Assembly (NCBI GenBank): GCA_973895155.1
Contig: OZ316893.1
Span: forward strand, 22,105,744-22,169,743
Direction: 5' to 3'
DNA from: Marsupella aquatica
Lineage: Eukaryota > Plantae > Marchantiophyta
DNA: 64,000 bases
Of the stretch, positions 2,761-64,000 are shown piece by piece (position 1 is the stretch's first letter; each line of letters begins with the position of its first letter). A program made the position numbers and the translations under genes. A model generated the notes under the pieces. It did no database searches and was not told the DNA's origin. It was given only the letters and a program-made list of their open reading frames with translations.

Positions 2761-2803
2761 TTTAGGGTTTAGGGTTTAGGGGTTTAGGGTTTAGGGTTTA
2801 GGG
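2761..2803 (+). repeat. Interstitial plant telomeric repeat (TTTAGGG)x6
   Basis: tttagggtttagggtttaggggtttagggtttagggtttaggg read directly; one unit has an extra G. Confidence 0.9.
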
Positions 2804-4634: not shown

Positions 4635-5037
4635 TGTGATTCTACAGAACAAACAACAAAGGATGTGCAAGAACGAAAACGGTGCGCACGACAAGAGCTA
4701 GGAAAAGCAGGAATTCTGTAATTCTGTATTCTGCAGATGAACTGCATAACTCCACAAAGGGGAAAGATAAAGGCCACGAACAGCCCTGTGACCAGGAGAC
4801 ACACAGCGCGGCAGAGATTCAAACCAAACAAGGCGCGTCGCCCTTGCTTCTCATTGTGGCAAGTGGCAAGTTGCACTTGGTGGAGTGCGAACGAAAAGCT
4901 AAAAGTGAAAACGTAACTAGAGCTAAAATCTGATGTAAGAGTAAAACATATCTCCCTAGATAGAAAGAGATCGATGATCAGGGATCAGACTAAAGAACCG
5001 GTCGAGCAGAGAAGAGAACAGGGCATTCCCTGTCACA
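4635..5037 (-). repeat. 3' LTR of copia element (403 bp)
   Basis: TGTGATTC...TGTCACA on the + strand; by eye it differs from the other LTR by ~4 C/T substitutions and a 6-bp indel. Confidence 0.95.
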
Positions 5038-6868: not shown

Positions 6869-9467
6869 GTGCCGGTGGAGTGAGAATCAATGGATCAATA
6901 TCAGAATGATCAAGAGACGAAATGGCAGCATCCAAACTGGTTGTGATTGCAGACGTTGATGGTGCCGGGGGACCATTACACAGTGGAGAACATGTACCAC
7001 TCACAGTAGGCGCCAAATCTGGAACAACCAGAGCCGGAAGAGACAATTGCAGCGGAAGAAGTAGCCGGGGTGGATCAAAAGATACTGGAACATTATCCAG
7101 TGAATCCGAAGTAGAAGCAATTGATGAGGAATCTTCAAAGAGGAGTGGACTGTTCCGTGGTGAGATAGCCGTGATTCGAGGAGTGTCATCGAAAGTAACA
7201 TAGGCTGAACTAATGATTGAATTTTGTTGCGGCAACCAGATGCGATAATTAAGACCGTCATCATATCCAACCAAATAGCCTTGTTGTGCACGCGGCTGAA
7301 ATTTCTCCCCACGAGGTCGTGTTTCAGGCGGTATGTGAACATACGCTGTGGCACCAAAAGTTTTAAAATGAGCAAGATTAGTGATCTCAGGAAGATCCTG
7401 TGTCTTCCGTAAGCAAGATATGCGAGCTGCAAGATCAGTGTGAGCCGTCGTAGGAAGACGATTGGTGAGATAGACCGCCGTCCTAATTGCCTCAGGCCAA
7501 AGCAGAATCGGTAATTTTGAATCCAGTAGCATAGCTCGAGCCTTCTCCGTGACAATGCTATTTGAGCGCTCTGCAATACCATTCTGCGTATGATGGTAAG
7601 GAGCTGAATGTATCATGCGACACCCCTTCTCTGCAAGGAAAGTACGAAACAGTGTGCTGCCAAATTCGGTACCATTATCATAGAAAACTTCCGAAATAGT
7701 GGATGAGTCGGTACCATTATCACAGAAAACTTCTGAAATAGTGGATGAGTACTGATTCGCAATAGCAGCAAAGAATTGTTGAAGAACCACTACTGCTTCA
7801 CCCTTGTTATGCAGACACGAGACCCATCGATAACGAGTATGATCGTCAGTGATCAAAAGAAAATACTTCATGTTACCCAAACCGAGAGACGACATCGGTC
7901 CACAGAGATCAAGATGTATTCTCTGAAAAGGTTTGGAAGCACGAGTATGTTGTTCTCGACAAATGATACGAGCAGATTTGGCCAAAGCACAGGGTTCACA
8001 TGGCACAAATGGAGCAGAGTCAGTAAGATGAATCCCCTGGCTCTGAATGAAATGTTTTACACCATCAATGTGTAGGTGTGCCAGGCGCCTATGGAGAGTA
8101 TTAAGATTGACGGTTTGAAGAGAGAGAGTACTATTGAGAAGGTCTACAGCAAGAGCCCACTGAACACGGAAAACCTTAAGACCATCCACTTTGGTAACAC
8201 AGGCAAACTCTTGACCGCTAGGGAGAAGGACAAATTTAGAGTGCCAGCCTTGCCAGTACACACCCCGCTGTTCAAGAAGATGTTCAGAGATAGTGTTAAG
8301 AACACTTGTAGGCATATAGCGTACATTATTTAAGCGTATTGGCCTAAATGTCTGATCAGTACATTGAACATGCAGATCAATATTGCCATATCCAGGAGAT
8401 ATGATGGACCCCGCCCCGGTGTTGATGGAGATAGGATCGACGATGTATTGTTGTATTAGCTTTTGATTATTGCAGAAATGATGATTGGCTCTAGAGTCAG
8501 CGATCCAAGTATCTTGATCAATTAAAAATGCTGCTGCGGAATGAGCTTGATGCGCAAACTGAACAAAATTAAACACATCCAGCGACACTGATTCGGTTGG
8601 AGTGGGAATTGAGGTAGTCGTCTGAACATTGTTGACACCTCGTAGCCTCTCTTGTATTCTCTGCATTGTAATAGTATTTGGTTGCCATCCAGGTCTATGT
8701 AGATGGACATGTTTGTAGTAGCACATCTCTTCCCGATGTCGAGGCAGCTGACAATATGGACAGATTTCCTTGCGTGGTGCAGCATTAGGAAGAACAGCGG
8801 GAGTAAACGCAGGAGTTGCCACAGCCACTTGAAGTGTAGGTGGCTCGCGCTCAGTCTTACGATGCCATTCATCCTTTGCTTCAAAGATAAGAGAATCTAA
8901 CGAAGGCGCATTGGTAGGATCACGACGCATTAACTCCCACTTAGAAAAAGCCCATTGATCGAAGTGTCCATCCATAATATGAATGAATTGCATGATTTGA
9001 ACTCTAGGATCAATCGTGATCCCAGCCGCGGTGCAACGATCAATAGCTTCTCGGTAAGCAATGCCGAACACTTCCATCTCTTCCCCACGATAATGAAGTT
9101 TCACAAAATGAACCCAATTATCATGTTTCTGTAACAAACCTTGCGGTTGATAGGTCTTCTTCAAATGATCCCAACATTCTTTAGCCGTAGAGATGGTGGC
9201 CAAAGAAGTCTGGATATGTGGCTTACAAGTGGAGAGAATGAGCATGCGCGCATGAGCACCCTGCGCGGTGTAGGTCTCAAGCCGCGCCTGAAAATGGTAG
9301 TCACGTTCATCGACATCTTGTAACGGAGGAATGGCAATCCCATCAACAAATTTCCAAACACTACCAGCGGCCAAGCTCGCAGAGACCAGCATTTGCCAAG
9401 CTTCGTAGTTGGCATTGCCATCAAGTTTTGGGACAAAATGACTAGTATCGCGATAAGAGAGTGACAT
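6756..9467 (-). CDS. Copia gag-protease-integrase part of the polyprotein (frameshifted from RT)
   Basis: Gag N-terminus LDGNANYEAW, Zn knuckle CPYCQLPRHREEMC, protease WIADSRANHH (usual DSGA), GAG-pre-integrase HRRLAH...CEPCALAK, integrase HLDLCGP, DNGTEF, QNGIAERSN, GYLVGY. Confidence 0.9.
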   Translation of the reverse strand: MSLSYRDTSHFVPKLDGNANYEAWQMLVSASLAAGSVWKFVDGIAIPPLQDVDERDYHFQARLETYTAQGAHARMLILSTCKPHIQTSLATISTAKECWDHLKKTYQPQGLLQKHDNWVHFVKLHYRGEEMEVFGIAYREAIDRCTAAGITIDPRVQIMQFIHIMDGHFDQWAFSKWELMRRDPTNAPSLDSLIFEAKDEWHRKTEREPPTLQVAVATPAFTPAVLPNAAPRKEICPYCQLPRHREEMCYYKHVHLHRPGWQPNTITMQRIQERLRGVNNVQTTTSIPTPTESVSLDVFNFVQFAHQAHSAAAFLIDQDTWIADSRANHHFCNNQKLIQQYIVDPISINTGAGSIISPGYGNIDLHVQCTDQTFRPIRLNNVRYMPTSVLNTISEHLLEQRGVYWQGWHSKFVLLPSGQEFACVTKVDGLKVFRVQWALAVDLLNSTLSLQTVNLNTLHRRLAHLHIDGVKHFIQSQGIHLTDSAPFVPCEPCALAKSARIICREQHTRASKPFQRIHLDLCGPMSSLGLGNMKYFLLITDDHTRYRWVSCLHNKGEAVVVLQQFFAAIANQYSSTISEVFCDNGTDSSTISEVFYDNGTEFGSTLFRTFLAEKGCRMIHSAPYHHTQNGIAERSNSIVTEKARAMLLDSKLPILLWPEAIRTAVYLTNRLPTTAHTDLAARISCLRKTQDLPEITNLAHFKTFGATAYVHIPPETRPRGEKFQPRAQQGYLVGYDDGLNYRIWLPQQNSIISSAYVTFDDTPRITAISPRNSPLLFEDSSSIASTSDSLDNVPVSFDPPRLLLPLQLSLPALVVPDLAPTVSGTCSPLCNGPPAPSTSAITTSLDAAISSLDHSDIDPLILTPPALVTMAPPLGNPPSDDFQDDFEAALINTFRASSLCSDH

Positions 9468-9563
9468 GATTCCAGATAATTGAAAAAAACAGATAGGAAT
9501 TCTAGCCAGAAAGAACGCAAGTTCGCACTCAAACGAAGATGTTCAAGAAGAATCGAAGAAATT

Positions 9564-16396: not shown

Positions 16397-17704
16397 TTAG
16401 AAATGAATCCTGTCCGTGTGGCCTGAATCAGCATTACGAGGTTCTTGGTCCCAGAATCTGTGCAAGACCTTTAAGAGCTGCAATGCTTTGCGTTTAGCCC
16501 TGGGTGTGCAGTGGCTCTGCAAAAGAAGCAGTAGACGGATCTGTGCGCCTGCATGTACAACCCGTTCTTGAACCTGGTGGGTATCAGCAGTGCATATTGC
16601 GCAAAGGACACCGGTGGCGTACTCAGTGGCACGGTCAGAGATCTTCAAAATGGTGTTCACTAAAACTGGAACGACGAGCTCGTGGTCGGTCATAGCAGCA
16701 CGCCCTTCGGGTGTGGTACCCAGAAGCTCAAGAATGGCCAGGGATTTCTCTGAATTTGTCCCTGATGCACCTGGAAGGATCTTCATGATCGCAGCAACCG
16801 AACCAGCCCTCACAGCTCCACACCGATTCTCCACCAGAAGGCAGAGCGCTAGTAATGTCCTCAGGGCCAGCTTGGTTGCGTTTGGCTGTTCACTCTTCAG
16901 GCTGAGCCTCACAATACCGTCTAGAAAGCTTTGCCGATCAGCGATAGCTTTCTCGAGTTCGTCGTTTGAAGAAATCTTCTGAATCAGGACGGCAGCATTC
17001 ACTCTGGCATCCAAGCTTCCCCTGTTGAGTATCCAGTCCACAACAAGCAACATTTCCGGCCCTGCGGACCACTTCAAGATCGCTTCATTGTGCACGAGAC
17101 GAACGATGGAAGCGAATGCCTGCTCATACGGTTCTGTATGCTTAAAGCACTCATTGGAAGAATTTGATGTCAGCAATGAGATGAGAGCAGACGCCACCTC
17201 CTCCTCGAGTGCTTCTCTGAGTTTCCCACTTTCCCTGTCTCCGACAAGTGTGAGCAGTGTCTCAAGACCACTCCTAGTACACTGGCCCTTTCGAATTTTG
17301 GCGAGCAAATTCTCAATGCATTGCTCATCAGACAGCTCCTGAGGGGGCAACCTTCTCGACAGATCAAACGGAGGCGAGTTTGCTTGGAGGCGACGCGGAC
17401 TGTTTTCTCCACTAGTATTAGAACTGACGAGGTTCAATGATGAGTAGGAGCTCGGAGTGTTGGCTCCGCTGTAAGCTACCTGAGAGGACTCGCAACTCTC
17501 GTCTGTCGACTCCTCCGTGCCCTCTTGTAGAAGCAAGATATTGGAAGGGAAGAATTCGTGACCGCTGTTCGTTACTTCGACAGGAGCTGTGCGAGCACTA
17601 CTGCTCAAGAGGAGAGGACTGCAGACCCCCAAAATCCCCTCCAAAAATCCACAAGAAAATGTCGGCGCCTTTGACAAACGTCCATGCTTCCCACTACTAC
17701 GCAT
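16397..17704 (-). CDS. Intronless armadillo-repeat protein related to the ARM region of plant U-box (PUB) ligases; no U-box in the ORF
   Basis: 435-aa ORF with PUB-type ARM motifs (ARVNAAVLI, ENRCGAVRAGSV, EKSLAILELLGTTPEGRAAM, KISDRATEYA, RLLLLLQSHCTPRAKRKALQLLK); N-terminus is Ser-rich low complexity. Confidence 0.85.
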   Translation of the reverse strand: MRSSGKHGRLSKAPTFSCGFLEGILGVCSPLLLSSSARTAPVEVTNSGHEFFPSNILLLQEGTEESTDESCESSQVAYSGANTPSSYSSLNLVSSNTSGENSPRRLQANSPPFDLSRRLPPQELSDEQCIENLLAKIRKGQCTRSGLETLLTLVGDRESGKLREALEEEVASALISLLTSNSSNECFKHTEPYEQAFASIVRLVHNEAILKWSAGPEMLLVVDWILNRGSLDARVNAAVLIQKISSNDELEKAIADRQSFLDGIVRLSLKSEQPNATKLALRTLLALCLLVENRCGAVRAGSVAAIMKILPGASGTNSEKSLAILELLGTTPEGRAAMTDHELVVPVLVNTILKISDRATEYATGVLCAICTADTHQVQERVVHAGAQIRLLLLLQSHCTPRAKRKALQLLKVLHRFWDQEPRNADSGHTDRIHF

Positions 17705-20700
17705 GCCGACAGTAGACGTTCACATCTCCCCTGGAATCTCAAATTCTCTCGCTTAGCTGCAGCTGCTGTAGAGGTGCCTGGGCGAGGTCTACAAGTGAGA
17801 GAGTGAGTAAATTAATGTCGGACGTCCAGAACTTCCAGATTCAATCCACACAATGCCCTCTGCAAAGGCTGCAAGAGGCAACTCGATTCAAGCGAGCACG
17901 GTGGATACGACGTTATCACACAAGCGAGAGAACTACAGACTGGAATTGCTCATCAGAAAAGGAGCAAGACATTGACCGGCGTCGTCAGCCCCGGGTCAGC
18001 CAAAGAGCAATGTTCTATCTACTCTAGATTCATGGCATTGTTGACCAGTAAATTGCTCTAACCATTACAATGCAATGTAATGCCAGCGGCGATCAAACTC
18101 CTCAATCAGCAGAACTCGGACAGTACAGCGAGGTCCAGAGAAACATTCGGGTCCTCCTCTTCCACCTCCAATCCACGAACAAATTGGGTCCTGGATGAAA
18201 TGCAATAGACCACAGAGCCACAGAATCAGAACTCCAGCTCTCCTTCTAGAATAGATGGAGTCGTCTCCTTCCTTTCCTTTGACATTGTGGTCAAAGGCTC
18301 GGCTCCACACTCATTCTCCAGGATCCCTGACGATCCGCCTGCCATAATGCCAACATTTGCCAGAGCTCATGGACCAGACAGCAGAGCTCGCGCATTGATC
18401 ACGTGAAAACGCAGCTCGTGAGAGTGTGAGACTGTCCCCTCGACCTGATCGATGCACTGCGCACTGCTGTTCCACACGATACCATGAATCCAGAACAAAT
18501 TGGCTCGCCATTATTCTGAGATGTACTGTATTGACACTCTTTTCTTGAAAATACACACTTTGCTATTTTATTTTATTTCAGTTTTCATAATATGTTGTCA
18601 TCTTGTAATGTTATTTTTTATAAATGCTCACTTTTCCATCCTTTTTAGTTTAACTAGACTATGTGTTCATCTTGTCACTCTTTCTTGTGAAATACACACT
18701 TTGTCATCCTTTTTACTTTAATTAGTATGGTGTCCATTTTTGTCCCTGTGTAGTTTAACTAGCCTTAGAGCCCCTTCTTTGAGCGAAAATACAGGTAGCC
18801 AGTGGTTTGAGAGCCTCACCAGTTGCGCCATTTAGAGAGACTCACACAGTTTCCAATTCTTATTTTCCACTTGCACCCCTAACGTTAGTCACACCCCAGA
18901 TTAGGAGTCTAGAAATTTCATTTTAGACAAGTCAGAGGCCTTGTAGAGTAACTTTCTATCCCAATTACATAGTTTGATTATTGGATTGCCATCTTTTCAA
19001 TAGTCGGTTAAACAAAGTAATACTAGTAGCTTGAGACAATCCCACAGTCAACATCTGGCTAGGTTTCAACATGATTGCATGGTAGTCAGTGTCCTCTACT
19101 ACCCTTACCGCAGCCCAGGGTCCTCACTTCTTTCTTCCAACCCATCATGCGCAAATAAACATAGGGTTTTTGATTGGGTTTAGTGAAAGACTTTTAAATT
19201 TTGTTGAAGAAAATTAGGGTTATTTTAATCCAATTTTGAGAATTATAAGAATCATAGAGCTTTTTAAATTGATAACTTAATGGAATATTCTCAAGTTTAA
19301 CCAAACTTAAGGTTTAGGATCTTTATTCCCCCAAAACTTCACGCTTGATATGGGACATTGCTTGGATTGAGGCCCTTGAGACCACAACACCCCTTCCAAC
19401 CCTTCACATCTGGTTGGGTCTCTTTCTCTGCTCTTTGATTTAACCCGGTCTGCCCCCTCCTGGTTGACTTTACATCCCTCTCCCCCACCCCCACTAGGTG
19501 GAGATAATATTGAGGTTTAGTTGCACGCACTGATGGCCATAGTCAGTTGATAAAAAGACTGAGAGGATGTTGATTATTGGATCAATCAAAGGACCATGGG
19601 AAATTACACCAAAAATTTGTTGCAGATACAAGATTTGGCAAAAAGAGTGTCAATGTACTAAATCTCACTCAGTTATCAATCCCTCCCTCCAAAGATCTAA
19701 CAGACTACACGCTGCTTTCATCCACGGGGCTGGCGCTGACCGTAGATGCTTTGGATACAATATGCTTTGGATACAATATCATGACAACCTACAGAATCAA
19801 TCAGGAGGAAATTGATGGAAATCATGGATTGGAATTGTGCCAGAGCCTTCTAAATGGTGTCATTTCTGCACACCACTGCACAATGCATAGTGTTGGCTTG
19901 GCATTGGCAAAGCCTTTGGCTCTTGCAGAAGCAAGAAGACAAGAAGGAATCATGGGGTGCTTGGGAATTAGGATGCCACGTACCAGTACCACTTTGTCTT
20001 TCCAGCCTACTATTTATTCTCGACATTGTATATTATCATCACCTCCAAATTCTGACACCCTCCCAGAATTTGTAGACCATGCCACTCTTTGAAATTGCCT
20101 AGCTTATAAGGTTTAACAATCATTCTTTTTTGTGCTATGGTCACCTTGTGACTGAAGCCGGGATGCACCACCATGTTGGACATAGTGCTCCCGTGCACTA
20201 CATTTTGGTGGTCCATGGGAGTTTGGGGGCCATAATTACGAAACCTAAAATAATATCTAGTTCTGCACTTGCAAGGCAAGTAGAAAAGGGGAAGATATGA
20301 TAAGGCATATATTAAGCCCAAATATCTCATATTCACACAATGAAAGTTAATCTAACTGAATCTACCCCAAGGGCCAAAAATTCACTTTTGATGGAAGGTT
20401 AGTTTATCTACTCATCTAGCATATACCCAAAACTAAAAATATCTGAATTTATGAATAATTATCATGTTATTATAATTAAACTCAAATTTTGGGAAATGTG
20501 GTCCATGGAGGTTTCAAAGACCAACTATGTGGTCCATAGGGGCTTCAGATTTGTGTGAACAGGAAGATGACTGTTAAGAATATTTTTTATCTAGTTTTAC
20601 TAAATTAATTCTGGATGGTTAGTTCTCTCTAGATTAAGGATGAGAGTTAGATTCTGGGTAATTGGGTCTGTAATTATGTGAGATACAAGTTAACGAAAGG

Positions 20701-49269: not shown

Positions 49270-50189
49270 GCTTCCCTATGGCCATGTCATATTGATGTCT
49301 GTTAAGATCAAAAAGTTATGGATCTGCCCTGCTTGTGAAATCCATACCGATTGTATCTATAACTCACAAGCTAGCTGATAGGGCATCTCAGACCTTGGAG
49401 ATACCAGGATAACTTTTTTCCATAAGGTATCAAGGCAGACTTTAAATTTGGGATTTCTCATAACTAAAAATTGTGGGAGTCAACCTTCAGCTCCTCTAGA
49501 GAAAGCCTATGGGCTCAACAACTAACCAATAACATTAACTACAGTCCATTCACTACTGTTCAAACATTTTGAACCATAGCTTGTGAATGTGGAAATCAAG
49601 AGAAAACTGGAAAATGTGATTAAATGATCCACAATGACAAATTATGTGTCAAAACTATGCCTGCTGGTAATCACACATCAAAATGTGATAATATACAGTG
49701 TGCACTCACTAATTTAAAGAAAATAGTGAGATTTATCATGGTATGGAGTGTGATGTAGTACACCCTATATGTCATCTTTTGATGTGCAATTGGGGATGCT
49801 ATTGAAAGGCAACCGGGTTTTCAACCTGATATGGCTCTGGTTGCTCCATTGGGGATGAAGTCAAGGAAAGAAAGGGACACATAATTGAGACAGAGGTTAC
49901 CCCTAACTCCTGGGTTATGTGCTGGTCAATGCATTTTCCATGGCTTTTCCATGAACATTTCAATTGTGCTACTTTGCAACATCTGATTAGTGTGTGTAAG
50001 GCTAGGACTGTAATCAAAGTTAACCAGAGAAGTGGATGCAAAAAATTCATTGGACTCATTGTCACCTTCTTTTTAAATTTAAAATAAATTTAAAAATGGG
50101 TTGGCCTAAGCTATCTTGGGCCTGTGTTTTTAAATTGATAACTTGGTCCAATAATTTGATTTTAATTTCTACCTTGGTCCCGTAACTTG

Positions 50190-50874
50190 TGTTGAGCATA
50201 GACTACAATCACAATGGCAAAACCTGTCAAGGATTGCTCTTAGTCTTGTGGCTCATAGGTTACGGCAATTCAGTTAACCACAGTTTGGGACTTAGTTGAG
50301 GTTAGGTTAGTCGTGTGTGATCTTGTATATACCAGGGCTAGTGTAAGCCACTCGCGGATGGTGCTTGCTCATAGTAATGGAGCAACTTCAGGAAGAGAGA
50401 AAGTTTGTGTGTTCAACTACTCTGAAGTAAAATTGGAGTGTTCGTGTGGACGTAGCCTTGGGGAAGAGGTGAACCACATATGGATTGTGTCGACTACGTG
50501 AACATGGTATGAGTCGTGATTGTATCGTCATGAAGGAAGGTGTCATAGTTCAACAACACCATTACCATCCAACGATCAAGAGCCGACACAACACGATAGT
50601 TACGTGGTTCACCTCCACATGAGGGTACATCCACGGGAACACACAAAACATTTACTGCACTCTAGGCCGATTAGCCATACCAAGCATCCACAGCACAAGC
50701 CCTCCCTATCTTTCAACTGGCTCCGTAACAATAGTTCCTACTATCCAAGCAAACATCGTTTGGGTATAGTGTGTGCATAACATAGCTAATCTAATCTAGT
50801 CTGCGACTAAGACCCGACTAAGATTAGCCCTAAACTGTGGTACAATCGTAATTCTAGACTTAAGAGTAAATACA
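50190..50874. mobile_element. Solo LTR (same family as 12142-12484) interrupted by a second solo LTR
   Basis: TG...CA termini with perfect TSD ACTTG (50185-50189 and 50875-50879); 50190-50224 plus 50561-50735 match 12142-12345. Confidence 0.8.
50225..50555. mobile_element. Nested solo LTR in opposite orientation
   Basis: TGTCAAG...TTCAACA, near-TSD AAACC/ACACC; contains CGTGGACGTAGCC...GAGGTGAACCAC, the reverse complement of a motif in the host LTR family. Confidence 0.65.
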
Positions 50875-51300
50875 ACTTGATCCCATAACCAGGGACACAT
50901 CTGTAACTTAATTCGGACCAGTGACCAAGTTCTGAGGCTCGCTATTAGGGTGTCTCAAACCTCTAGGGTTTGGCTCCGGTCACTGTCACACATGTTTGCC
51001 CCGAAATAAAATGACACATTTTTGCCCCGAAGTAAAATGACACACATGTTTGCCCTGAAGTAAAATGACAGACTCACACAAGCTTGTCCTACCAGTTGTG
51101 ACCTAGGTCCCTATCTCACACTTTTGGACTGGGGATCTTTCTAGGGCCTGAGATTCCTGTTGTGAACTTTGGAACTTTAAGACTAACTAGAAAACAGGTA
51201 CAATATTCCTGGTAGTACTTATCTACTCTGTGTGTGTCATGACATTGCGCTTTGCAGGTGCGTCGTCCGTAAGGTGACAGAGGGCAACAGAGCTGGGCAC

Positions 51301-54255
51301 TTAGGGCGATCTAAAGAATCTGGGAACTAAGTTTTCTGGAGCTGCCTTCTCTCGTGGAGTAGAGAAATTAATAAGGAGGGCATGGTCTACAATCATGTCC
51401 GTAAAGGGCCCGAATCCTGGAAGCCCCTTAGTGGCACGGAAAGTACTGTACTCAGAGAACAACGTGGGCGTGGGAGGACATGATGTACTGTACATTGTAG
51501 AATCTAGGACATTCTCCTCATCCAGAGGCAAAAGCGGCCAGAGATCAAACATAAGTTGGCGGATGAATTCCTGCAGCCGCAAATATGTGAGGTTGGACCA
51601 AATTTTGCTACTCCGGCTTGCCAAGGCCTTGGAAACAAACTTCAACCAGTGATTGGGAATACACTGTATCTCTCTTAGCGATGAGCATTCATGGTTCGAA
51701 TGCAAGGCCGAATAATACTTGAATTGCGCGCTGCATGTGTTAGAGAGATCAGCGCACTTCAGTGCCACCCACTTTGTTCAGACAGTTCAATCTCCAATTA
51801 ATATTGAAGTTTTACGCCAATACAAAGATCGAAACTGAAAGTTTAAGAATTAAGCTAGGAGCAAACAATGATGACAGCTTTCAAAGGACTGCTTCACATC
51901 CGCGCATCAATTGATGCCACCCGTGACTTCGAAAAACTTCAGCAAGCGAGAGGAGTGCCATTGATGACCTGCGGTATAGCCTTTTTCAAATTGTGCCTTG
52001 AGATGCCCAGCAGATGATACAGTTTTGGGAGATGCATCACACGAATTGTTTGTCATACAGGAAAAAAGGATAGAAAAGTCAGAATGCCATTCCCCCTCAG
52101 CATTTCAGGTGAAATTTAATGTAATTCCAATGGAAAGCAGGTCTCCAGAGCACTACGGTACGCATCACTACCGTGGCTTTCCTTAAAGAATCCACTTCTC
52201 TGGTTTACCGTTGGTTAAAGATGTACACGTCCTTCGCTATCTTACTTGACACTGCGTTCACATGGGTGAGAGCCTGACCAGGTCATTGTATCGTCAGGTG
52301 CGCAGAACGACACCTCGTTAAAGAGCGATTGACATGAAAAAGATTCAAAAGGAAGGAGGTTCAGATCTTGACCCGTCGACTACCCGTCTGGTGCCGCCCC
52401 TATTCCTGCATGTGGCGCTACCCAAAAATTTAGGCTTTGATCTGAAAGAAAATCACTTCTAATGGTGCGAGGGAAACCAACTATCCACCTTGTTAAAATT
52501 GTCAGGTGAAAAGAAATAGCACATGACGACCAGCCCTGCTCATGATTTGGATTGTTGCCCGAACAATGGAAAGATCGTCTGATGACCTCGAAGTTCCGGT
52601 CGTGAATCTCCTACAATGAGGTGACTCACTTTGTCGCAGGACAATCAAAGAGACATCCAGATCGAAGAGATTTGAATCAGACAGTCAGACTTCACACAGA
52701 ATGTGAAATACCGCTCGCTTTTAGAATTTATGGTATTGGCCGGTTTTGAGTTTGGTGACCAGAACTAAACTTCCGGATAGTATTCCACAGATCGGTACGA
52801 TCAATCGAGTGGAGACACGAGCTTCCATTTCTACACTCGGCAGTTGCAGGACTTATCATTGCTACTTTTTTAGACTGCAAAGTACTGGTGGGCGTAGAAT
52901 GGAGGCTCGCAGTAATTGTGAGTCCAGACCACAGTGCTCGGAAGGGAGCTGTAAAGTCACCGAATCCAGTTGAAATCTGACTCAACAAAGGACAATTCTT
53001 ATACCGCATGATGGCCTTGCCGTAAGTGTGAGCATGATCACTTATAAATGATTTATTTTTATTTTGGGTTGTGTTTTTTACATGGAAGATTTCACTCAGT
53101 TCCACGATGAGGAACGACAGACCGCAGGAGTTCTCGTTCAAGACCAGCAGAGAGGAATTCCCTGGCCTGGCCTCAGGCACAGACCTCAGACAATCAAAAC
53201 AATCTTGATCTATTGCGCAATGAAAGTCTTAGTACCTGAGTCAGATTAACTGCAGATCATGTAGATCAAAAAAGATTTGATCCAGAGATGGCGTGTAGTC
53301 TCAGTCTACATACACGGGACAGGTCAGCGAGGCCGGACATATTCCACAAAGAATCTGAAGGCTTTGTTCCGGCAGTTAATAAGCAGCACCATTGATCGAT
53401 GGCGGTCCAGGCTTCTCTGTGGGTCGAAGGAATCGATCCTGCTGAAAAATGCGAAGTTGTACAAAAGGGGAATTCCTTGCGTCAGGAATATGGCCCAGCA
53501 GATTGGGCGAGGGTGGCTGACTATCTCTAAATTACCGGCAGGGAAGGCCAGCTATTGACATTCTATTGACTTGTTATTTATTTGAACAACTCGTAAGTAT
53601 TTTCGAGAGCCCGGATCAATCCACTACAGTAGAGGCTCCTCAAGATCGATTCTGTGAAAGTTCTCAATCTGGAAATGATAACTGATCTTGTAGGCAGTCT
53701 ATCCTAGTTGAATTCAAATTTTGCTCTTCAGAACTGTAACTCCAAATCAGCGAGCCCCAAGTGTCGGTTCACTAGTGGTGGTGGTGCAGTGCTAAGGGAC
53801 TGGGGGAGTCAAGCTAGACAATAATCGATCAGCAATTGGGACACGTTTGATCGAGGTTATTTTTGGAATCCAGTAGCTTCCAGCTCAGGAGCGCAGAGCC
53901 CATCCTTCAAAGGAGAAGTCAATGAATATTTGATTGTATCGACAACAGAACACGCCAAAAAGGACAACCAGAATACCGAAGACAACATGGAGATTGTCTG
54001 ATTGTAGGTGACTGTACTAGTAGTACAGTAATTCAGAATCAACAAGTAATAAGTTAGTGAGAGGGAAATGGTCAAATGGCAGACCCTGTCCGCAGACGCT
54101 ACAACAGTCCAATTCACATAATATACCATGATGTTCCAGAAACCACGGCCGAAATCGAGCAAAATGTGAGATTGAAGGAAACTAATCTGAGCAGTAGGGC
54201 CGAACAGTGATGACTGCTTCTTTGGAATCACCCCCATCAAGAGCAGAGTCTGCAA
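51301..54255 (-). pseudogene. Degraded intronless coding-like region of unknown identity
   Basis: Three co-oriented 130-155 aa ORF fragments (51301-51768, 52728-53180, 53857-54255) in coding-like sequence with stops and frameshifts between them; no intact recognisable motif. Confidence 0.3.
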
Positions 54256-54460
54256 TCAGGTGACATCACACGAAGTACGGTCCCGTGAAGTCTTCCTTTC
54301 CTCGTTGACCTTGGATAATTAGGTTACCGTCCTGTGGCGGGCCGATTCGCCGGCTTCTGGGCCCGGTTTGAGCTGTCGGACAACTTGTCGTGTTGTCAGA
54401 CACGACAACTTGTCATTTGTTGCCCGAAAATGACCCTATTTGTCGCATATTCCTTCTTAT

Positions 54461-55460
54461 GCCCCGGTCCGGCCCCGGCCCGGCCAGGCCCAATCCCTTC
54501 CCGGCCCGGCCCATTCCCTCCCCGACTAATCCCGGCCCCTTCCATTCCCGGCTCGGTCCGGCACCCGGCTCGGCCCGGTCCCTTCCCGGCCCGGCCCCGC
54601 ATCCCGCCCGGCCCCGCACCCGGCCCGGCCTCACAAACACTAGGTGAGGGCGGGCCGAGTGCGGGGCCGGGCGGGATGCGGGACCGGGCCGGGAAGGGGC
54701 AGGGCCGGGAAGGGAAGTGGCCGGGCCGGGACGGGGCAGGGCCGGGAATGGAAGGGGCCGGGCCGGGAAGGGGCCGGGCCGGGAAGGGAAGGGCAGGGCC
54801 GGGAATGGGCCGGGAATGGAAGGGCAGGGAATGGAATGGGCCGGGAGTGGAATGGGCAGGGCCGGGAATGGAAGGGGCAGGGCCGGGCCGGGAATGGGAG
54901 GGGCCGGGCCGGGAAGGGGCAGGGCCGGGCCGGGAAGGGACCGGGCCGGGAAGGGACCGGGCCGGGAACGGAATGGGCAGGGCCGGGAATGGGAGGGCCG
55001 GGAATGGGCCGGGAAGGGGCAGGGCCGGGAATGGGAGGGCCGGGAATGGAAGGGGCAGGGCCGGGCCGGGAATGGAAGGGGCAGGGCCGGGCCGGGAATG
55101 GGAGGGGCCGGGAACGAGAAGGGACCGGGCCGGGAACGAGAAGGGACCGGGCCGGGAACGAGAAGGGACCGGGCCGGGAACGGGATGCGGGGCCGGGCCG
55201 GGAAGGGACAGGGTCGGGAATGGAAGGGGCCGGGCTGGGAAGGGGAAGGGACCGGGCGGGATGCGGGGCCTGGCCGGGAAGGGACAGGGCCGGGAATGGA
55301 AGAGGCAGGGCCGGGACTGGTAGGGGCCGGGAATGGGAGGGGCAGGGCCGGGGAGGGGAAGGGACCGGGCCGGGAAGGGGAAGGGACCGGGCGGGATGTG
55401 GGGCCGGGCCGGGGGAAGAGACCGGGCCGGGACCGGGGCAGGGAGTTCGGTCCGGGGCGA
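54461..55460. repeat. Extremely GC-rich subterminal repeat array (GGGCC / GGGAA-TGGAA-GGGGCA modules) with a strand switch at ~54639
   Basis: C-rich copies at 54461-54634 mirror G-rich copies at 54644-55460; recurring unit such as GGGCCGGGAATGGAAGGGGCAGGGCC. Confidence 0.95.
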
Positions 55461-55651
55461 TTTTCCCGTTAACTTTAAGGGCCGGGGCAAGTTTTAGGGC
55501 CGGCTATCGTTAGGGTTAGTGAAATAGAGGTTCCTCTAACATAGGATGAATGCCCCATAGGCCATTACTCAACACTTGTATAAAAAGGGTCATCACATGT
55601 TCATTTATTCATTCTTTGAAACTTGTATTCCAATGGAAGCTCATAGGTCTA

Positions 55652-56030
55652 AAGGAGGGAGCAAGAATGACTTTTGTACGCGCATGTTTGGAGCTTCGGC
55701 TCGGCGTGTGGCATTTCGTGCAGAAATTTTCAAATCTCCCTTAACAATTTAATGATATTTGTGAGTTTTGTGATACAATTATAACGATAGACGTATTCAT
55801 GTATGCATGTTTGGAGCTTCGGCTCGACGTGTGATATTTTGCATGGTTATCGTAATTCGTCGAAAATGTTTTCACTCAATTAGCAAATTACCGTTAAATT
55901 ATAGATAGCACATACGTCGGATAGGAAAGTGAATGACTTAAAACAAAAGTAAACATTTGTGCTCATGCTTGGAGTTTAGACTCGGCATGGGATATTTCAC
56001 TAATGTTTTATCTTCCTGTTTCCAAGTCGT
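55652..56030 (+). repeat. Left inner inverted module with 3 copies of a 34-bp motif (CATGYTTGGAGCTTCGGCTCGGCGTGTGRYATTT)
   Basis: Motif copies at 55683, 55806 and 55964 (spacing 123 and 158); colinear with the reverse complement of 63367-63735. Confidence 0.9.
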
Positions 56031-56118
56031 TACTTTCAAAACAAAAATAAAACTATTTTTTGGTTGAGTGAAGGCATTTCACACTTATTTGTGAGTTAGT
56101 ACTTCATTGTTTTCGACC

Positions 56119-58992
56119 ATGTCTTCAGATGAAGATGAGTCAGGTGACTTATCAGCCCATTCAACTCCTGTTAGACAAGGTCAAAATCCGGCTCGAGAAC
56201 GTAGTGCAAAATTTTCCCCGGTATGGAAATATTTTGATCGATGTGACTTTCCGTCAGGCTGTCATGACATCAATCGTATGTATCGAAAATGCCGGTTTTG
56301 CAAAAAATATACTACGTTCCATGCAACACGAGCAAGGGCACATTTGATGGGAAATATATACAAAGGGGATGCACCACCTTGCCTAGGACTCTATGGTGTC
56401 ATCGAATTGGATGACATCAATAGAATGTACAATGTGATCAAAGTGGACTCTTCTATTAGGTACAAACGAAGCGATGGAAGTCATATACTATTGTCTGCCA
56501 GAGGTCGGAGATCGTTTATCCAAACGACAAATTCGCAAGCTTCAACTCGAGGCTCCAATCATGTTGACGTGGAGGAGAATCCAAACATGAGTAATGCGGC
56601 TAGGGCATCAAGTCTTTCAAACCCTATTATAGATGCTTATCAAATTCCAAATAGATCACATTTGGATAAGCTGTGGGCAAAAGCTTTTTACTCAAGTGGT
56701 ATTCTGTTCAATGTCTCAGAGAATCCATTATTTTGAGAAGCAGTTGCAGAGACTTCTAAAGGAATTGTTAATGGGTATTCTCTTCCTAGTATGCGAAACC
56801 TCCGATTCAAATTGTTGGAGGAGGTCAAAGCTGATGTTGCAAAAGACATGACAAAAACCATGAAGGAGGCCAAACCTTTTGGATATACCCTTTCATCAGA
56901 TGGATGGGAAAATATCCGAAGAGAACCCTTGATGAATGTCATGTTGTTGACTTGTAGAGGAGATATTTTCTTGGATAGTTGGAATGCTGCACAAGCTGAT
57001 AAGAAAGATGGAAGATACCTTGGAGAGATGTGGCTGAAATATATAGACGAAATTGGCGCGGATCACATCATACAAATTGTAACCGACGGTGCACCCGCTA
57101 ATCGAGTTGGAGGTGAAGATATAGTGATGCAAAAATATTCGCATGTTACTTGGAGCTGGTGCGCTGCCCACGTGTTTAATTTGTTACTAGAAGACATGTG
57201 TGGCCATAAGAAAATTATGGTAGATGAAAGTGGATGGAATCCATTCAAATTCATTTTCAAACGTTTGAGGTGGATAGTAAAAGCAGTTTCATCATCCCAA
57301 AAACTCTCCGCAATTTTTGTTCGAAAATCTGCCTACATAAAACTATTGAATCCAAATGCAACAAGATTTGCGACCATTTTCTTAATGGCGCAAAGAGCAT
57401 TGGAGCTAAGAGGTCCCTTGCAAGAAATGGTCATTGATGACAAATGGCATCTTTATCGTGATAGGCTTCCAGGTCACTCAAGGTCGGACGGGCACATGAC
57501 GAGAGCAAAGGCAGACGAACTGAAGCAATGGATTCAACAAGATGCATTTTGGGCTCAAGTGAGTTCTACAGTAACTTTTTTCACACCATTGGTGAAGATG
57601 CTACATGAATTTGATGGGGACTCGCCGCAGTCAGCTTGGTTGTATTGGAGCTTGAAAAAGGGGATTGTTGATCTGGAGGCGAGCATGGAAGAATGTTCCT
57701 TAGTAACTGAGTACCTGAAACCAAGGATAAGGAAAGTGTATATGGATCGAAGGAAACCGCTTACTAACGATTTCATGCTAGCTGCAGCATATTTGAATCC
57801 TCATTATTTCTTTGATGAAGACGAAGATGTGGGCGGAGATGCTGAGCTATGTAGAGGCTTCAATGATTATGTTGCGAGATACGCAGAACACAGTGTGAAG
57901 CCAGGGATCAACCATGATCGTGATGTCACTAAACTTATTTCTGACATCCAAAAGCAGGCATTTGAGGCTCAAAAGAAATTGCCAAACACATCTGTTGGCA
58001 TAAGAGGAGCCCAAGCAAATATTGAAAATTTCAGTCCGGGAGAGTGGTGGCATGCATATGGAGCTGATTACAAGGATCTAAGGATCATAGCTAGGAAAAT
58101 CACTCACCAACAAATGTGCGCATCATCATGCGAACGGAATTGGAGTTCGTATGGATTTATACATTCAAAAATTCGTAACAGGTTGACCAATGATCGGGCA
58201 AAAGATTTAGTCTTTGTATTCACGAATACGCGAGTGGAAAAAGGACTTACAAAGGTCCGAAACCCCCAAACGTTCATCTACAAACGTTATGATGAAAGAA
58301 GAGCAAGAAATGATGCACCTAGATCATCCCCCACTGAAGCCTTCCAGAACGAGGAGCATGATGCAAGAAGTGGGGGTTAGGGGGAGGAAGATGTCGATGA
58401 TTTTGATACAATTGATGACGCCGATGAGGCGTTGCAAGGATTGTCATTGCAATGTGATAGTGAGGTATTGACTCGTATTCCACCGGATACTGAGGATAGT
58501 AATGCGGGTGAATGGGAGGATGATACTGATTACTTGATGTTTCCTACGATTGACGAGTCTCAAGTCCAAGATGATGAGGAGTACTCATTGCATACAGGCT
58601 TTGATATGCATTCCCAACCAAACCCATGTTTCACTTTTCCAGGATTGAATGTCCATCGTGATCACCTAGCAAGTACTTCATATGCATTTCAACAAGGAAG
58701 TGACATACCAGAGCATCATTTGGAGGGAACTACTTCTGCATTTTATGCACAACATGATCAACTACAACGCCGAACACTACATAATGATGCACAGTGGGGA
58801 CAAACAGTTACTCCAGCAGTCAATGTCACGAACCCATACCCATCATACACGCATGCTCGTGTCGTTCAACAATCTCATGACAATGACGATTCGCATAATC
58901 GTTACCCATTTCCATGGGCCAATCGACATCATGAATTTGATGGACTCATGCAACAAAATCAGAACAATATGACGAGGGATTACTCCTCATAG
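56119..58992 (+). pseudogene. hAT transposase (BED finger + DUF659-type catalytic region + dimerisation domain + acidic tail) with two in-frame stops
   Basis: BED: SPVWKYF...CRFC...RARAHL...C; catalytic SSDGW, VTDGA, WCAAH, ATRF, SSCERNWS; dimerisation WW...KIRNRL...KDLVFV. ORF pieces 56107-56736, 56791-58380 and 58432-58992 share one frame, separated only by TGA 56734-56736 and TAG 58378-58380. Confidence 0.92.
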
Positions 58993-59452
58993 CCTTGATA
59001 TGTTTTGTGATTACTACAAGATGATATATGTCAATTGTAATTTTTGAAGTATAATACATATTTTTTTCCCACTTTCAATGGCTTTGGTGCTTGGTTTTAC
59101 TCTTGCTTGCGATTGTATCGTCGATTACAATTTTTAGAGTGTTCTATATTTGAACGTATTTTTTTGAAATAATCACCATATTATAGCAGCAATCGCTGAA
59201 TTCATATCTCCACGCAAAAGATTCACCGAGTGTAAAAATGAAGTAAAAATGTTTTCAACTTTCAAGGACATGCCCATGAAAATCTCTGTGGTGCAGCCGG
59301 TACTATATATGAATAATATGATCTAATATCTAGAAACTATCCTATGCGGCCGATACTATAGAAAATGTGTATAGTACAACTAGGTAAGCGTACACTACAC
59401 GATCAAAAATGTATGAATATGCAAATAGCAAATATTTTGGTATCTTCCTCTC

Positions 59453-61321
59453 TCAATGCATGGTCATTTCCGCTTTCACTTCTGCTTGTTGCTGACGTCG
59501 CCGATGACGACGAATAGATCGTTGCATGTTTTGCTCGTTGGTAGTTGGTTGATTGGACTGAGCATACTCTTTCCATTCATTGAAACGACCACTGAATAAC
59601 AACTTGTCAAAGTCACCATCTGACAGATTGTACTCATTGATTGTAAAGTTTTCAATGGGTGTGGAATCTATTTCCGTCATCGCCACACCGTCCTGAGTCA
59701 TCTCTTCATCGTCTTGTTGTGTCTCCATTGGTGGGATTTGATTCAACAATCCTCGTTGCTCATACTCCCGTTCATGAAATGGTTTCCTACACCAACATTT
59801 TCGACTCTTCTTCATCCACCTGAATAAGCAAGCATGATGCCATAAATGTCCGCAAGTTCCCAGAATGGAAACTGATTTTGGGCCCCATGGATATAAACAC
59901 CAAGGACACCTTGCACCCTTTTGTCGAACAAATTCAGCCATACTTTCATCTTTCTTCCATTTATCAAAATACTCCTCGACTGCTACCGAATCGACCTCCA
60001 CATCAGGAAAAAGGTTAGATTCTAATGTAGGATCAATCATTTGAAAATTCATAAAATTGACATTGTTCAATTTTGATTTTCCTTTGCTCGATTCATTGTC
60101 CATATCAGAATTGTTCATTTGGTCTATCTCTTCTTGGAGATTTGTGATGATGAGCTTTTGTGATGCAACTTCATCCTTCAGATTCTTTATGACTCTATTT
60201 TCTTGAAGTTGCGCTTGTTCATTGGATTGCCTTTCGTTTTCGGCAACTTGACTTCGAAGCCTCTCAATTTCTTCCATCTTGTCAAACAATTGGGCCTTGT
60301 ATCGGTACATGTCTTGGACCTCACAATTGGTACCCGATGAAATAGACATCTTCTCTAGTGATTTCATCTTCAAATCACTCTCTTTTAGTTTTGACGCGTA
60401 GTAGTCAATGCTACCAGCGTCACAAAGTTTGAGACGGTAATTGACGCAAAGAATTTTCTCAATAAAATCACCAATCTCACATCCCAACCCCTTGCAGACA
60501 CTTTGCATGCAAGGAGTTCCCTTGTTGGCATCCAAAACACCCGTGTTGTTTGTTGGTAAGGTGCTACTTGGACCAATAGAAACGTTTGCTGTTGTCGTAG
60601 TGCTTTTTCCTTCTTTGATACAAGCGGCACTGCTTTCAGATTTTGTAAAGAACTGTGGGATTGCAGTCATTTTTTGGCTCTCATTTGTATGCACCTTGTG
60701 CACTTCATCTATTTTTCGCTTGGAGCCTTTGTTGGTAGTCACAGGCATTTTATTCCTGTCACTTGTGGTGGAAAAGACTTTTGAGTGAACATTATGCACA
60801 AACTTGCCTTCGTCCGTCTCCCATCGGTAATCCACTTTCCACCTCAGGATGAATTCAGCAATCAATAGTCGGATAAAAGGAGTATATACTGAACTCGTTT
60901 TCCCTTGCACTTTTCTTGGAGTAAATTTCCTGTAACGTTGTGCCCAGTGCTGCTTCACCTCTTCATGTGTCACCTTCGACATAGTAAACTTATCTTGCAA
61001 CCAAGACTTTGTGCCCCACATTTCCTCATCGCGAAAAATCATTTTGGCAAATTTTTGAAAAGCCTCCCTAGGCATCAATATTTCTAATTCTTTGGCGTTG
61101 ATTGGCCATTCCGTGTGAGGAGGTTTCACATCGGGTGTGAGGATATTCCATTGCACATTGGGTTTGGACTCCTCCTTCGTCTGAGTTGCTGGAAGTTTGT
61201 GGACGTCGTGAAAACTGTAATTTTCGTGGTCCAAGTAAGACCCTTGACCATCTTGCATTTTAGGATCATATACACGATTGGCCTCATCATCCTCATCTGA
61301 ACTCAAGTTCCATTTTCCCAT
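59453..61321 (-). CDS. 622-aa protein with coiled coil and C-terminal RING-H2-like zinc finger (putative E3 ubiquitin ligase), transposon cargo
   Basis: CPWC-x14-CGHLWHHAC-LFRW-x6-CWC equals C-x2-C-x14-C-x-H-x2-H-x2-C-x10-C-x-C with the RING Trp; heptad-rich segment KMEEIERLRSQV...LQEEIDQM; open, intronless ORF. Confidence 0.8.
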   Translation of the reverse strand: MGKWNLSSDEDDEANRVYDPKMQDGQGSYLDHENYSFHDVHKLPATQTKEESKPNVQWNILTPDVKPPHTEWPINAKELEILMPREAFQKFAKMIFRDEEMWGTKSWLQDKFTMSKVTHEEVKQHWAQRYRKFTPRKVQGKTSSVYTPFIRLLIAEFILRWKVDYRWETDEGKFVHNVHSKVFSTTSDRNKMPVTTNKGSKRKIDEVHKVHTNESQKMTAIPQFFTKSESSAACIKEGKSTTTTANVSIGPSSTLPTNNTGVLDANKGTPCMQSVCKGLGCEIGDFIEKILCVNYRLKLCDAGSIDYYASKLKESDLKMKSLEKMSISSGTNCEVQDMYRYKAQLFDKMEEIERLRSQVAENERQSNEQAQLQENRVIKNLKDEVASQKLIITNLQEEIDQMNNSDMDNESSKGKSKLNNVNFMNFQMIDPTLESNLFPDVEVDSVAVEEYFDKWKKDESMAEFVRQKGARCPWCLYPWGPKSVSILGTCGHLWHHACLFRWMKKSRKCWCRKPFHEREYEQRGLLNQIPPMETQQDDEEMTQDGVAMTEIDSTPIENFTINEYNLSDGDFDKLLFSGRFNEWKEYAQSNQPTTNEQNMQRSIRRHRRRQQQAEVKAEMTMH

Positions 61322-61482
61322 CCTTGCAAGATTTACAATAAAAACAAATATTTAGCATTCATTGCAACATTCACCAAAAATAAAAAGTTTTATGAGATGA
61401 TATAAAAATTTCAATTTATACCACATGATGAACATGTGATTGTTCATGTGGTAATTGAGAGAAGATAATGGTGAAAACTAAT

Positions 61483-63144
61483 TTAATCTCTCAAATAAAC
61501 ACTATTTTGTGTCAACAATCTACACTCTTGAAATGTGCGAACCATCCTCAAACTCCAATGGGCACAATCCATTCTTTTGGTAGGATCAGTGGCCATCATG
61601 TCACGAATGATATTCTCTAATTTTGGACCATACACTCTAGTATTCCAACCCGCCATCAAAAATTGTGTGCTTGGCCCCATTCCATCCCAGTTTTCTGTGA
61701 GTAAAGTCTCGAACAAATTGCCTAGAGCATAGATATCAGTTGCTTCACTATACTCTGCTGGGTCAGGTCCAACAAGCTCTGGTGCCAATTGAGGGTATTG
61801 TCTTTGATAGGCAATAACTTTCTCACTTGGGGTGGACCACATTCGATTCTCTGGTAATGTACATTGTGTTTTGTGCTTGGATAACCCAAAATCACAAATT
61901 CCTACATACACTCTGATAGCAACATCATCCTCGTGATCAAAGTGAAGTAAGACATTTCCAAAATGAAGATCACAATGTAGTCGATCGTGCTTGTGGAGAA
62001 ACTGTAAGGTCTCCAACAAAGCCAAAGCAATCCCCAAGCGATGCTCCAAAAATATTTTCTTCTCGGATATGAATCTCACATCAACCTGCACATTCCCTTG
62101 TGACTTCCCCTTGCTTTTACCCCATTTTCCACACTTATCCATGAAGCTTCCCAAGTCACCTCCATTGTAAAAATCATAGATAAGTTTGGGTGGAAATTCG
62201 ATGGTCATTGCCAAGGCCCCAATAACTTCCTTATGATTCAAACCCCCCATTAGCACTTCTTGTAACGCATCTTTTATCCTCTTGTGCCGATCTCCATCTT
62301 TGAATCTTTTTGCCACTAGCTTCACATTTCGAGGAATGAGTGGGCAATCCAAGATATGGCACAAGAACACCTGCCCTTGGCTGCCACTCCCAATGCGATG
62401 TAAATTCTTCACTTGTTCCATCCTCAAAAAGTGAATACTCCTTACTGCTGGAACAACACGTGATGGTCTTGTACCTCTTTGGTGCCCTTCAACACCAAGC
62501 TCCCCAAATTGCACGACCTTATTTGCATATTTGACATTACTTTCTGTTCTGGCCATTCCTAACTCATTGCTCCATTTTAGACACAATTCTCTTTTGTGTC
62601 TATGGAGGGCAGGATTTCCAAGGAATATGGACTCAGCCCCCCCCAAATTGGCTACCAACTTGTCCCACAGGTTCACAGCCAAGTTCAGTGCCAATTGCTC
62701 AACAAATCCTTGAGGCTTCTCAGCCTCGCGTTGAAATTGCTGAATCTGTTCTCGTGTCATGTCCTCTTCCTTCTCTACGGTTTGGCGCATGCAACGCACC
62801 ATGTCATTTTGAAAGTTTTTGTATCCCTGTTCTCCATGTAAGGTATACTTCCTTTCAAACCTATTATGCTCATACTGTTCCGGTTGGGTGTAGGGATATA
62901 CTATATCCTTCCAAATGGCCAATAACACATTTTGTCGATGGTTGATGTCGATGGTTGTTTGAGCAGCCCCTCCTCTTTGTTTTCGCTTCCCTGCTATTTT
63001 GGCTTTTCTACTAAACCCTAAGATTTTGTGCGCATTCCTCAAGGCATTCAGGGCATTCGCATCTGGTTCCAATCCATCGCTCAGCATGGTACTCATCACC
63101 TCCATCAACTGCCTATATTCTACACCTACATCCGGGTTGGCCAT
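61483..63144 (-). CDS. Atypical protein kinase with ~240-aa unknown N-terminal domain, transposon cargo (likely start MANPDV)
   Basis: Kinase subdomains in order: IGSGSQGQV, LVAKRF, alphaC LQE, YDFYNGGDL, HCDLHFGNVLL, ICDFGLS, QLAPE, ATDIYALG, DPTKR; intronless open ORF. Confidence 0.9.
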   Translation of the reverse strand: MANPDVGVEYRQLMEVMSTMLSDGLEPDANALNALRNAHKILGFSRKAKIAGKRKQRGGAAQTTIDINHRQNVLLAIWKDIVYPYTQPEQYEHNRFERKYTLHGEQGYKNFQNDMVRCMRQTVEKEEDMTREQIQQFQREAEKPQGFVEQLALNLAVNLWDKLVANLGGAESIFLGNPALHRHKRELCLKWSNELGMARTESNVKYANKVVQFGELGVEGHQRGTRPSRVVPAVRSIHFLRMEQVKNLHRIGSGSQGQVFLCHILDCPLIPRNVKLVAKRFKDGDRHKRIKDALQEVLMGGLNHKEVIGALAMTIEFPPKLIYDFYNGGDLGSFMDKCGKWGKSKGKSQGNVQVDVRFISEKKIFLEHRLGIALALLETLQFLHKHDRLHCDLHFGNVLLHFDHEDDVAIRVYVGICDFGLSKHKTQCTLPENRMWSTPSEKVIAYQRQYPQLAPELVGPDPAEYSEATDIYALGNLFETLLTENWDGMGPSTQFLMAGWNTRVYGPKLENIIRDMMATDPTKRMDCAHWSLRMVRTFQECRLLTQNSVYLRD

Positions 63145-63366
63145 GTTCCCGCGACACCAGAACAAAGAGTATCAAAAGGAGTAGAAACTTACGATGCGTA
63201 TTGGCTGGGAGGCGAGGTACTGATGCGGTGTGTACAACCAAGCTGCAATAGGAACTCCTGGAAAATCATGCGTGGTACACCTTGTCACGGGAGGGTCACG
63301 GGATGGTCACGAGATATATTTGTTTTTTTCATTCATTATTATTATTGTGATTGTAACAACTGCAAA

Positions 63367-63735
63367 GGGGAAAGATAACTCTTGTGAAATACCCCACGCC
63401 GAGCCAAGGCTCCAAGCATGGGCACAAATGATATCCTATCCTTTCAGTTATTAACATTCCTGCTTCAAATATATGTGATAACTATAGTTTAGATACCATT
63501 TGTGAGGGAAGTGAAATCGTTCACGAGGAGTCGTAATATCCATGCAAAATATCACACGCCGAGCCGAAGCTCCAGGCAAGCGTACATGAATGTCTCTATC
63601 CTCGCAAACTTTCCACTAATTCCACAAATGACACTAAACTGTTAAGGTGATATTAGATTTTCCCATACGAAATACCACACGCCGAGCCGGGGCTCCAAGC
63701 ATGCGCGCATGAGAAACTCATAATACCCCTCCAAA
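63367..63735 (-). repeat. Right inner inverted module with 3 copies of the 34-bp motif
   Basis: Copies at 63387-63420, 63547-63580 and 63670-63703 (spacing 160 and 123), mirroring the left module. Confidence 0.9.
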
Positions 63736-64000
63736 TTAAACTAAACACCGACTTATAATGACCATACATAAAGCAAAGACACAAAGCAAAAAACAAGTAA
63801 ACCATGCAAAGGAAAACAAAAGCAAGGAAAACAAAAGCAATGAAAACAAGGAACTCACCAAAAGCAAAAGTAAAGAATGAGGAGGGAAGAGGGGGAGTCC
63901 TCCTCTTATACTCCCGGCCCCCCCCACCCGAGCTTGACCTCCCGACCCCGAGCCCTCCCGAGCCGACCCGGCCGGCCCTAACCCTAAAATGCCCCGCCCC

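Follow-up and report, generated by a model that had tools for sequence, protein, structure and literature searches.

The stretch of 64,000 nucleotides considered here (the window), from contig OZ316893.1 of Marsupella aquatica, carries towards its right end a hAT transposase gene on the forward strand that faces two intronless and uninterrupted open reading frames (ORFs) on the reverse strand, one for a RING-like protein and one for a protein kinase. This arrangement had been described in an earlier note on the same DNA and is borne out by ORF and Pfam analysis, as is the description of the kinase as complete, since its frame is open and every catalytic motif is present. The segment likely belongs to a hAT DNA transposon of about 10–11 kb, present here in a copy with a disrupted transposase, and the kinase and RING-like genes are with high probability accessory genes encoded by the element itself. 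The features on which this rests are collected in Table 1.

Table 1 Features of the hAT element and its ends (window coordinates)
Feature	Position	Strand	Description or evidence
Left terminal module	54359..54420	+	About 60 bp, internal palindrome 54379-54414; contig ends, depth rise
C-rich arm of internal palindrome	54463..54634	.	Inverted arms, DNA fold z, crossed by multi-copy contig
G-rich degenerate tandem array	54644..55503	.	Units of 11/16/21 bp; TRF period 16 and 21, about 40 copies
Left module copy, promoter-like, three motif copies	55679..56050	+	70 bp upstream of transposase ATG
hAT transposase, DUF659 type, pseudogene in window copy	56119..58992	+	Pfam, motifs, stops
Intact 622-aa RING-like ORF	59453..61321	-	RING-H2-like finger 472-511 ending C-x-C, preceded by a coiled coil (about 332-403) and an uncharacterised N-terminal part
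Intact 553-aa kinase ORF	61483..63144	-	Helical N-terminal domain with basic cluster, divergent TKL-like non-RD kinase
Right module copy, promoter-like	63336..63707	-	About 190 bp upstream of kinase ATG
Start of C-rich array mirroring the left array	63900..64000	.	Truncated by window end

The assignment of the transposase to the hAT superfamily is based on a weak zf-BED match below the Pfam cut-off, a DUF659 match with an E value of 3e-29 and a Dimer_Tnp_hAT match with an E value of 2e-9. The BED, DDE, CxxH and dimerisation parts of a hAT enzyme are all represented, with residues D261, D323, C348xxH351 and E672 in place. No Mutator-like (MULE) family was matched by Pfam at an E value of 0.1, the domains found being DUF659 and hAT dimerisation instead. 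The tail of the protein is long, acidic and poorly conserved. Homologues form eight clusters at 41-88% identity, after which identity drops to 29% or less, and the named DUF659 proteins of angiosperms and conifers are only 23-27% identical. Two internal stops, of which the earlier account made no mention, interrupt the frame at codons 206 and 754 (56734-56736 and 58378-58380), and with them the window copy lacks the intact transposase frame of an autonomous hAT copy. Homologues at 52-77% identity are open across both positions, and contigs of all four sequencing runs that were aligned lack the stop at 58378. The frame is therefore lost in the window copy, whereas the rest of the family likely retains an unbroken transposase.

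The kinase ORF matches the Pfam families Pkinase and PK_Tyr_Ser-Thr (E value 2e-16). The G-loop (252-257), the VAxK lysine (K279), the helix-C glutamate (E296), the catalytic loop HCDLHFGN (390-397), the DFG motif (418) and the APE motif (454) are all present and are conserved in the family, the HxD..N pattern of the catalytic loop included. This loop, HCDLHxxN in general form, is of the non-RD type and has a histidine where most kinases carry lysine. The best match by sequence to a solved structure is distant (Roco4, E value 5e-9). From its motifs the protein is predicted to be an active, divergent TKL-like kinase. Homologues fall into eight clusters at 44-67% identity, a profile search recovered 17 proteins at an E value of 1e-30 or better, and a quick tree built from 51 kinase domains sets the family's 15 rows on one side of a branch with a Shimodaira–Hasegawa-like approximate likelihood ratio (SH-aLRT) support of 88, which suggests a distinct family. 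Further kinase radiations with HNDLxxxN loops, more precisely HNDL(H/S)xxN, and long N-terminal regions (P0050, P0058, P0060, P0071, P0072 and neighbours) stand beside this family in the profile search and in the tree.

The non-synonymous and synonymous divergences (dN/dS) are 0.34/2.1 between the window and a metagenome locus, L001, and 0.37/2.1 between L001 and a second such locus, L002; these ratios of about 0.16-0.18, from two of the three pairs, the third being saturated at synonymous sites, point to purifying selection. Of the 20 family members with sequence around residue 50, 16 show a cluster of basic residues there, as against 14 of 63 background windows; this cluster may serve as a nuclear signal. 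Fold searches with the kinase were dominated by the kinase lobe, with MLKL, a cell-death protein that joins a HeLo-type four-helix bundle to a kinase, only at rank 38 and with a root-mean-square deviation of 18.7, and they barely probed the N-terminal domain. A viral origin of the kinase was considered and is without support, as 0 of 115 viral contigs with pattern matches encode a relative and the viral fold matches are generic kinases.

The second accessory protein had been described as a coiled-coil protein with a RING-H2-like finger. The coiled coil and the finger are both found, with eight candidate C3H2C3 zinc ligands in four of five aligned proteins, whereas the RING score stays under the Pfam cut-off and the last ligand pair is C-x-C. 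Its homologues form three clusters at 43-61% identity, and the predicted structure has a mean confidence (pLDDT) of 37.

The three genes were also said to lie between mirrored inverted modules. The modules as such are confirmed: the left and right copies are inverted relative to each other, align with 72% identity over 375 bp (E value 2.6e-61), and each contains one motif in triplicate and is situated a short distance upstream of a start codon. They are, however, subterminal and diverged, and are not demonstrated terminal inverted repeats (TIRs). A homologue of the right module also precedes the kinase in L002 (L002 1-338, 60% over 343 bp, E value 2e-17).

The left end of the element could be located from contigs of sequencing runs. 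The stretch or part of it occurs in five of the six runs listed, under three organism labels, and four of these (X1-X4) were aligned to 50000-64000; the run data consist of contigs, the depth of which does not equal copy number. In X1 and X3 the contig of the single-copy flank stops at 54389, and unrelated flanks (agreement 0.46-0.61) join at 54359-54362; single contigs do likewise in X2 and X5. In X1 the summed depth climbs from 16 to about 1400 at this point, and the left end itself is found at 11-15 times flank depth; therefore most carriers there have other flanks. Thus, the element is repeated with differing flanks, in agreement with membership of the hAT superfamily. Its first base could be narrowed down to 54357-54362. 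Many of the contigs that join the left end belong to related families sharing only 54362-54420, and some of these are multi-copy, so that not every loose end represents a unique flank. These terminal 60 bp recur in a number of further repeat families, which lose the similarity beyond 54420; one of them is in run X5 under a third organism label.

The start of the element had earlier been placed at 54641. This position turned out to be the centre of an internal palindrome, and the left end lies at about 54359-54362 instead. A single contig crosses 54602-54682 with 0 differences, at a depth of 244 as compared to 16 for the flank. Since a multi-copy contig crosses the junction, both 54641 as a terminus and a separate miniature inverted-repeat transposable element at 54360-54642 were rejected. 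The palindrome forms a hairpin with arms at 54494-54634 and 54644-54784, separated by a spacer of 9 nt, for which the DNA fold z is -16.8. This GC-rich hairpin (54494-54784) repeats along with the element and could be a source of small RNA or form a cruciform. A search with Rfam gave four matches in 53000-64000, all under the gathering score and the best two on the hairpin, and 0 in L002. The adjacent G-rich tandem array likely represents putative subterminal binding sites for the transposase. Each of the two GC-rich arrays has telomere-like (telo-box-like) motifs on its inner side (55500-55520 and 63975-63990). If the element is symmetrical, it would end on the right near 65,000 and measure about 10.7 kb; the enclosure of the genes on the right rests on the mirrored module and on depth.

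The three genes are repeated together in two of the four aligned runs. In X3 the depth is 549-770 for the transposase, 680-707 for the RING-like gene and 657-672 for the kinase, with a flank at 55-118, and in X2 the corresponding values are 432-664, 607-811 and 576-842 with a flank at 18, although this ratio is uncertain, as one contig alone supplies the X2 flank value and no more than 57% of that run was covered. In both runs long contigs cover these genes with 0-4 differences. The RING-like gene and the kinase are bridged by contigs in X4 (60923-64000), and the kinase and the right module in X1, X3 and X4.

Relatives of the element provide further information on the association of its genes. 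Close relatives of the three proteins that carry a species name come only from the liverwort Calypogeia fissa, in which nine kinase homologues, one of full length, are spread over eight contigs and nine transposase proteins over six. The scattering of these kinases and their mostly incomplete length are as expected for a transposon gene. Two metagenome loci, the L001 and L002 already mentioned, were found among 102 pattern matches. The spacer behind the kinase of L001 can be aligned to that of the window (0 of 200 shuffles as good), and an ORF start 182 bp behind this kinase weakly resembles the start of the RING protein; of 1000 shuffles, 4 were as good in the comparison with the homologues P0002 and P0023, and 31 and 228 in that with the other two. 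Thus a tandem pair of kinase and RING-like gene is probably kept in L001. In L002 the spacer is unlike that of the window (25 of 200 shuffles), and no RING or hAT match was found behind the kinase; the upstream module and the kinase are kept and are followed by a pair of ORFs with DUF6729 and DDE/DxxH domains, at 2527-5518 on the forward strand. The residues of the latter (D66, D142, D162xxH, E278) have spacings of 76 and 136 versus 68 and 176 in Dada-U6_DR, and their order fits the description of Dada elements in PMC3706591, of which a DDE triad with DxxH after the second Asp and an N-terminal CCCC finger are characteristic. This neighbour may therefore be a Dada-like transposase, present either through nested insertion or because a second family carries the kinase.

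A number of observations weigh against a three-gene hAT element. The left terminus has no clear textbook start of a hAT TIR. Such repeats are short and usually start with CA or TA (the CAG/TAG rule), and the related ends vary in their first bases. The right end and the 8-bp target-site duplication (TSD) typical of hATs are not seen, as the window stops at 64000, inside the start of the right array. The RING match has an E value of 5e-5 and 24 bits as compared to a cut-off of 27.3, and the finger ends in C-x-C. In X1 the depth steps down from 50-63 for the transposase to 28-36 for the RING-like gene and 14 for the kinase, with the flank at 16, and in X4 from 117-150 to 70-86 and 39, with the flank at 31-48. 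Relative to the flank these values are about three times, two times and one time, and therefore most transposase carriers in these two runs are without a near-identical kinase. Differences specific to the window copy look neutral, with 10 non-synonymous and 2 synonymous changes and 2 at stops in the transposase and 10 and 6 in the RING-like gene, as counted from 31 of 40 rows out of 677, a comparison that does not bear on selection among copies. Finally, the co-occurrence of the three ORFs in a related plant was not recovered: among the accessions of C. fissa in partial lists (nine kinase, nine transposase, one RING), members of different classes nowhere adjoin, the nearest gap being 317 numbers, and accession order thus gives no support to the three-gene layout.

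Partly on these grounds it can be asked whether the unit is mobilised by the hAT enzyme at all, or is a composite with the ends of a foldback-, Mutator- or Dada-like family in which transposases were swapped. The long modular ends with a hairpin, the terminal 60 bp common to other families without a clear CAG/TAG start, and the occurrence of the same kinase and module beside another transposase would all agree with this. We nevertheless regard it as unlikely, in view of the position of the transposase directly behind a mirrored module and its repetition together with the left end. As to the wider proposal of a multi-gene hAT lineage, the co-repetition in two of four runs, the purifying selection on the kinase and the dispersed copies in a liverwort speak for it.

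In its transposase domains the element resembles the plant DUF659-type (Tag1-like) hATs. Maize MuDR and Arabidopsis VANDAL elements have convergent genes that are fired from duplicated promoters at the ends, with an anti-silencing role, which resembles what is proposed below for the window element; VANC proteins are not known to be kinases or RING proteins, unlike the cargo described here. The suggestion that the architecture had not been described was too strong, as multi-gene and kinase-bearing DNA transposons have been published. According to Kojima (Kojima 2025, PMC12730594), hAT7 elements carry a TET/JBP accessory gene, such genes have been transferred between DNA transposon superfamilies including hAT, and IS3EU elements combine a transposase, a TET/JBP gene in the middle and an alpha-kinase in opposite orientation. 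The TET+ IS3EU elements of rust fungi are thus alike in being DNA transposons with a transposase, a middle gene and a kinase opposite to the transposase, but they combine an IS3EU transposase with an alpha-kinase and TET/JBP in a fungus, as opposed to a hAT transposase with a TKL-like kinase and a RING-like protein in a plant, and the alpha-kinase and IS3EU transposase that mark IS3EU elements are not those of the element described here. TET+ hAT7 elements are similar in that their accessory enzyme is conserved, is shared with further superfamilies and has been suggested to act against silencing. They differ (PMC12730594) in having one accessory gene, located upstream in the same orientation and encoding a DNA dioxygenase, and a TSD of 7 bp, whereas the window element has two convergent genes for protein modification. 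Whole extra genes between transposon ends are also known from cargo hATs, such as the histone-H3 hAT of Pseudocercospora (PMC6710886) and ToxhAT (PMC6737239). The former contains inactivated copies of a known host gene, whereas the cargo in the window is a conserved family of its own for which no host parent was found, and the latter is composite and lacks TSDs. The literature searched, the scope of which excluded most subscription journals and Repbase, showed no hAT that combines kinase and RING genes. A hAT with a kinase and RING-like pair is a variant on known themes of multi-gene or kinase-bearing transposons.

The task for which the kinase and the RING-like protein are maintained may be the countering of host silencing, which is the function we tentatively favour. 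The left copy of the duplicated promoter module would drive the transposase and the right copy the kinase, perhaps with the RING-like gene behind it, so that all three genes would be expressed together. The kinase and the RING-like protein would then act in the nucleus, where the former may phosphorylate and the latter ubiquitinate a chromatin or silencing factor, weakening the silencing of the element by the host. Such a benefit would be independent of the transposase, which would explain why a unit of kinase plus promoter is found beside a different, Dada-like transposase. The nuclear-type basic clusters, as far as they can be read from sequence, would fit anti-silencing or control of the transposase, while no feature favours a toxin.

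Control of the transposase would mean that the kinase switches this enzyme on or off and that the RING-like protein removes it, which would limit damage to the host. The same promoter-like module ahead of transposase and kinase and the basic clusters just mentioned are in line with it, and the acidic transposase tail could be the target. But the kinase and its module also precede the unrelated Dada-like transposase, and in X1 and X4 the transposase has more carriers than the kinase, so that this function is improbable. Non-RD kinases may not need control through the activation loop, which would suit the idea of a poison-antidote pair that biases survival of spores after meiosis, the RING-like protein destroying a toxic non-RD kinase in carriers, for which a tandem pair that is probably conserved in L001 would be suitable, as would a haploid-dominant host, which is likely given that the closest named homologues are from a liverwort. 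Such a system is still less probable, as the kinase of L002 has no RING gene behind it and the family consists mostly of fragments over many contigs, unlike a single drive locus. The least probable explanation is Pack-type cargo, in which the two ORFs would be host genes that were picked up passively and are of no use to the element. Capture of whole host genes by hATs is known, as in the histone H3 case (PMC6710886), the purifying selection seen over long divergences could be a relic of an earlier time in the host, and the differences private to the window copy look neutral. On the other side, the two ORFs have neither introns nor interruptions, relatives at 44-67% identity retain the length and the motifs as well as, in L002, the upstream module, and no named host parent appears among the eight kinase and three RING clusters or in the profile search.

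Outside the element, the window contains a very high-copy repeat at 50000-50930 with many loose ends, for which the summed depth reaches 28,000 as compared to 16 in X1. A Copia-type retrotransposon gag-pol region in two frames occupies 5036-9542 on the reverse strand, a host-type plant U-box ARM-repeat ORF lies at 16400-17719 on the same strand, and an interstitial plant telomere repeat of six TTTAGGG units is found at 2761-2803.

If the anti-silencing function tentatively preferred here is placed in a wider context, it is possible, though less likely than not, that a radiation of DNA transposons with their own families of non-RD kinases, here with a RING partner, exists in seed-free plants. 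These would form a portable cassette of promoter and enzyme that crosses superfamilies and that disarms silencing or biases spore survival through modification of host proteins, and would thus correspond in plants to the TET/JBP cargo of fungi, with proteins in place of DNA as the target. The interest of the element is mainly due to its two accessory ORFs, which are intact, come from a young family and are open to assay, so that the idea is directly testable in Marchantia or yeast. Even without such a function, the finding draws attention to a family of kinases that are taken for host genes when genomes of seed-free plants are annotated. Should it be true that silencing is countered or inheritance driven, these proteins would represent a new class of plant transposon-encoded effectors that work by phosphorylation and ubiquitination.

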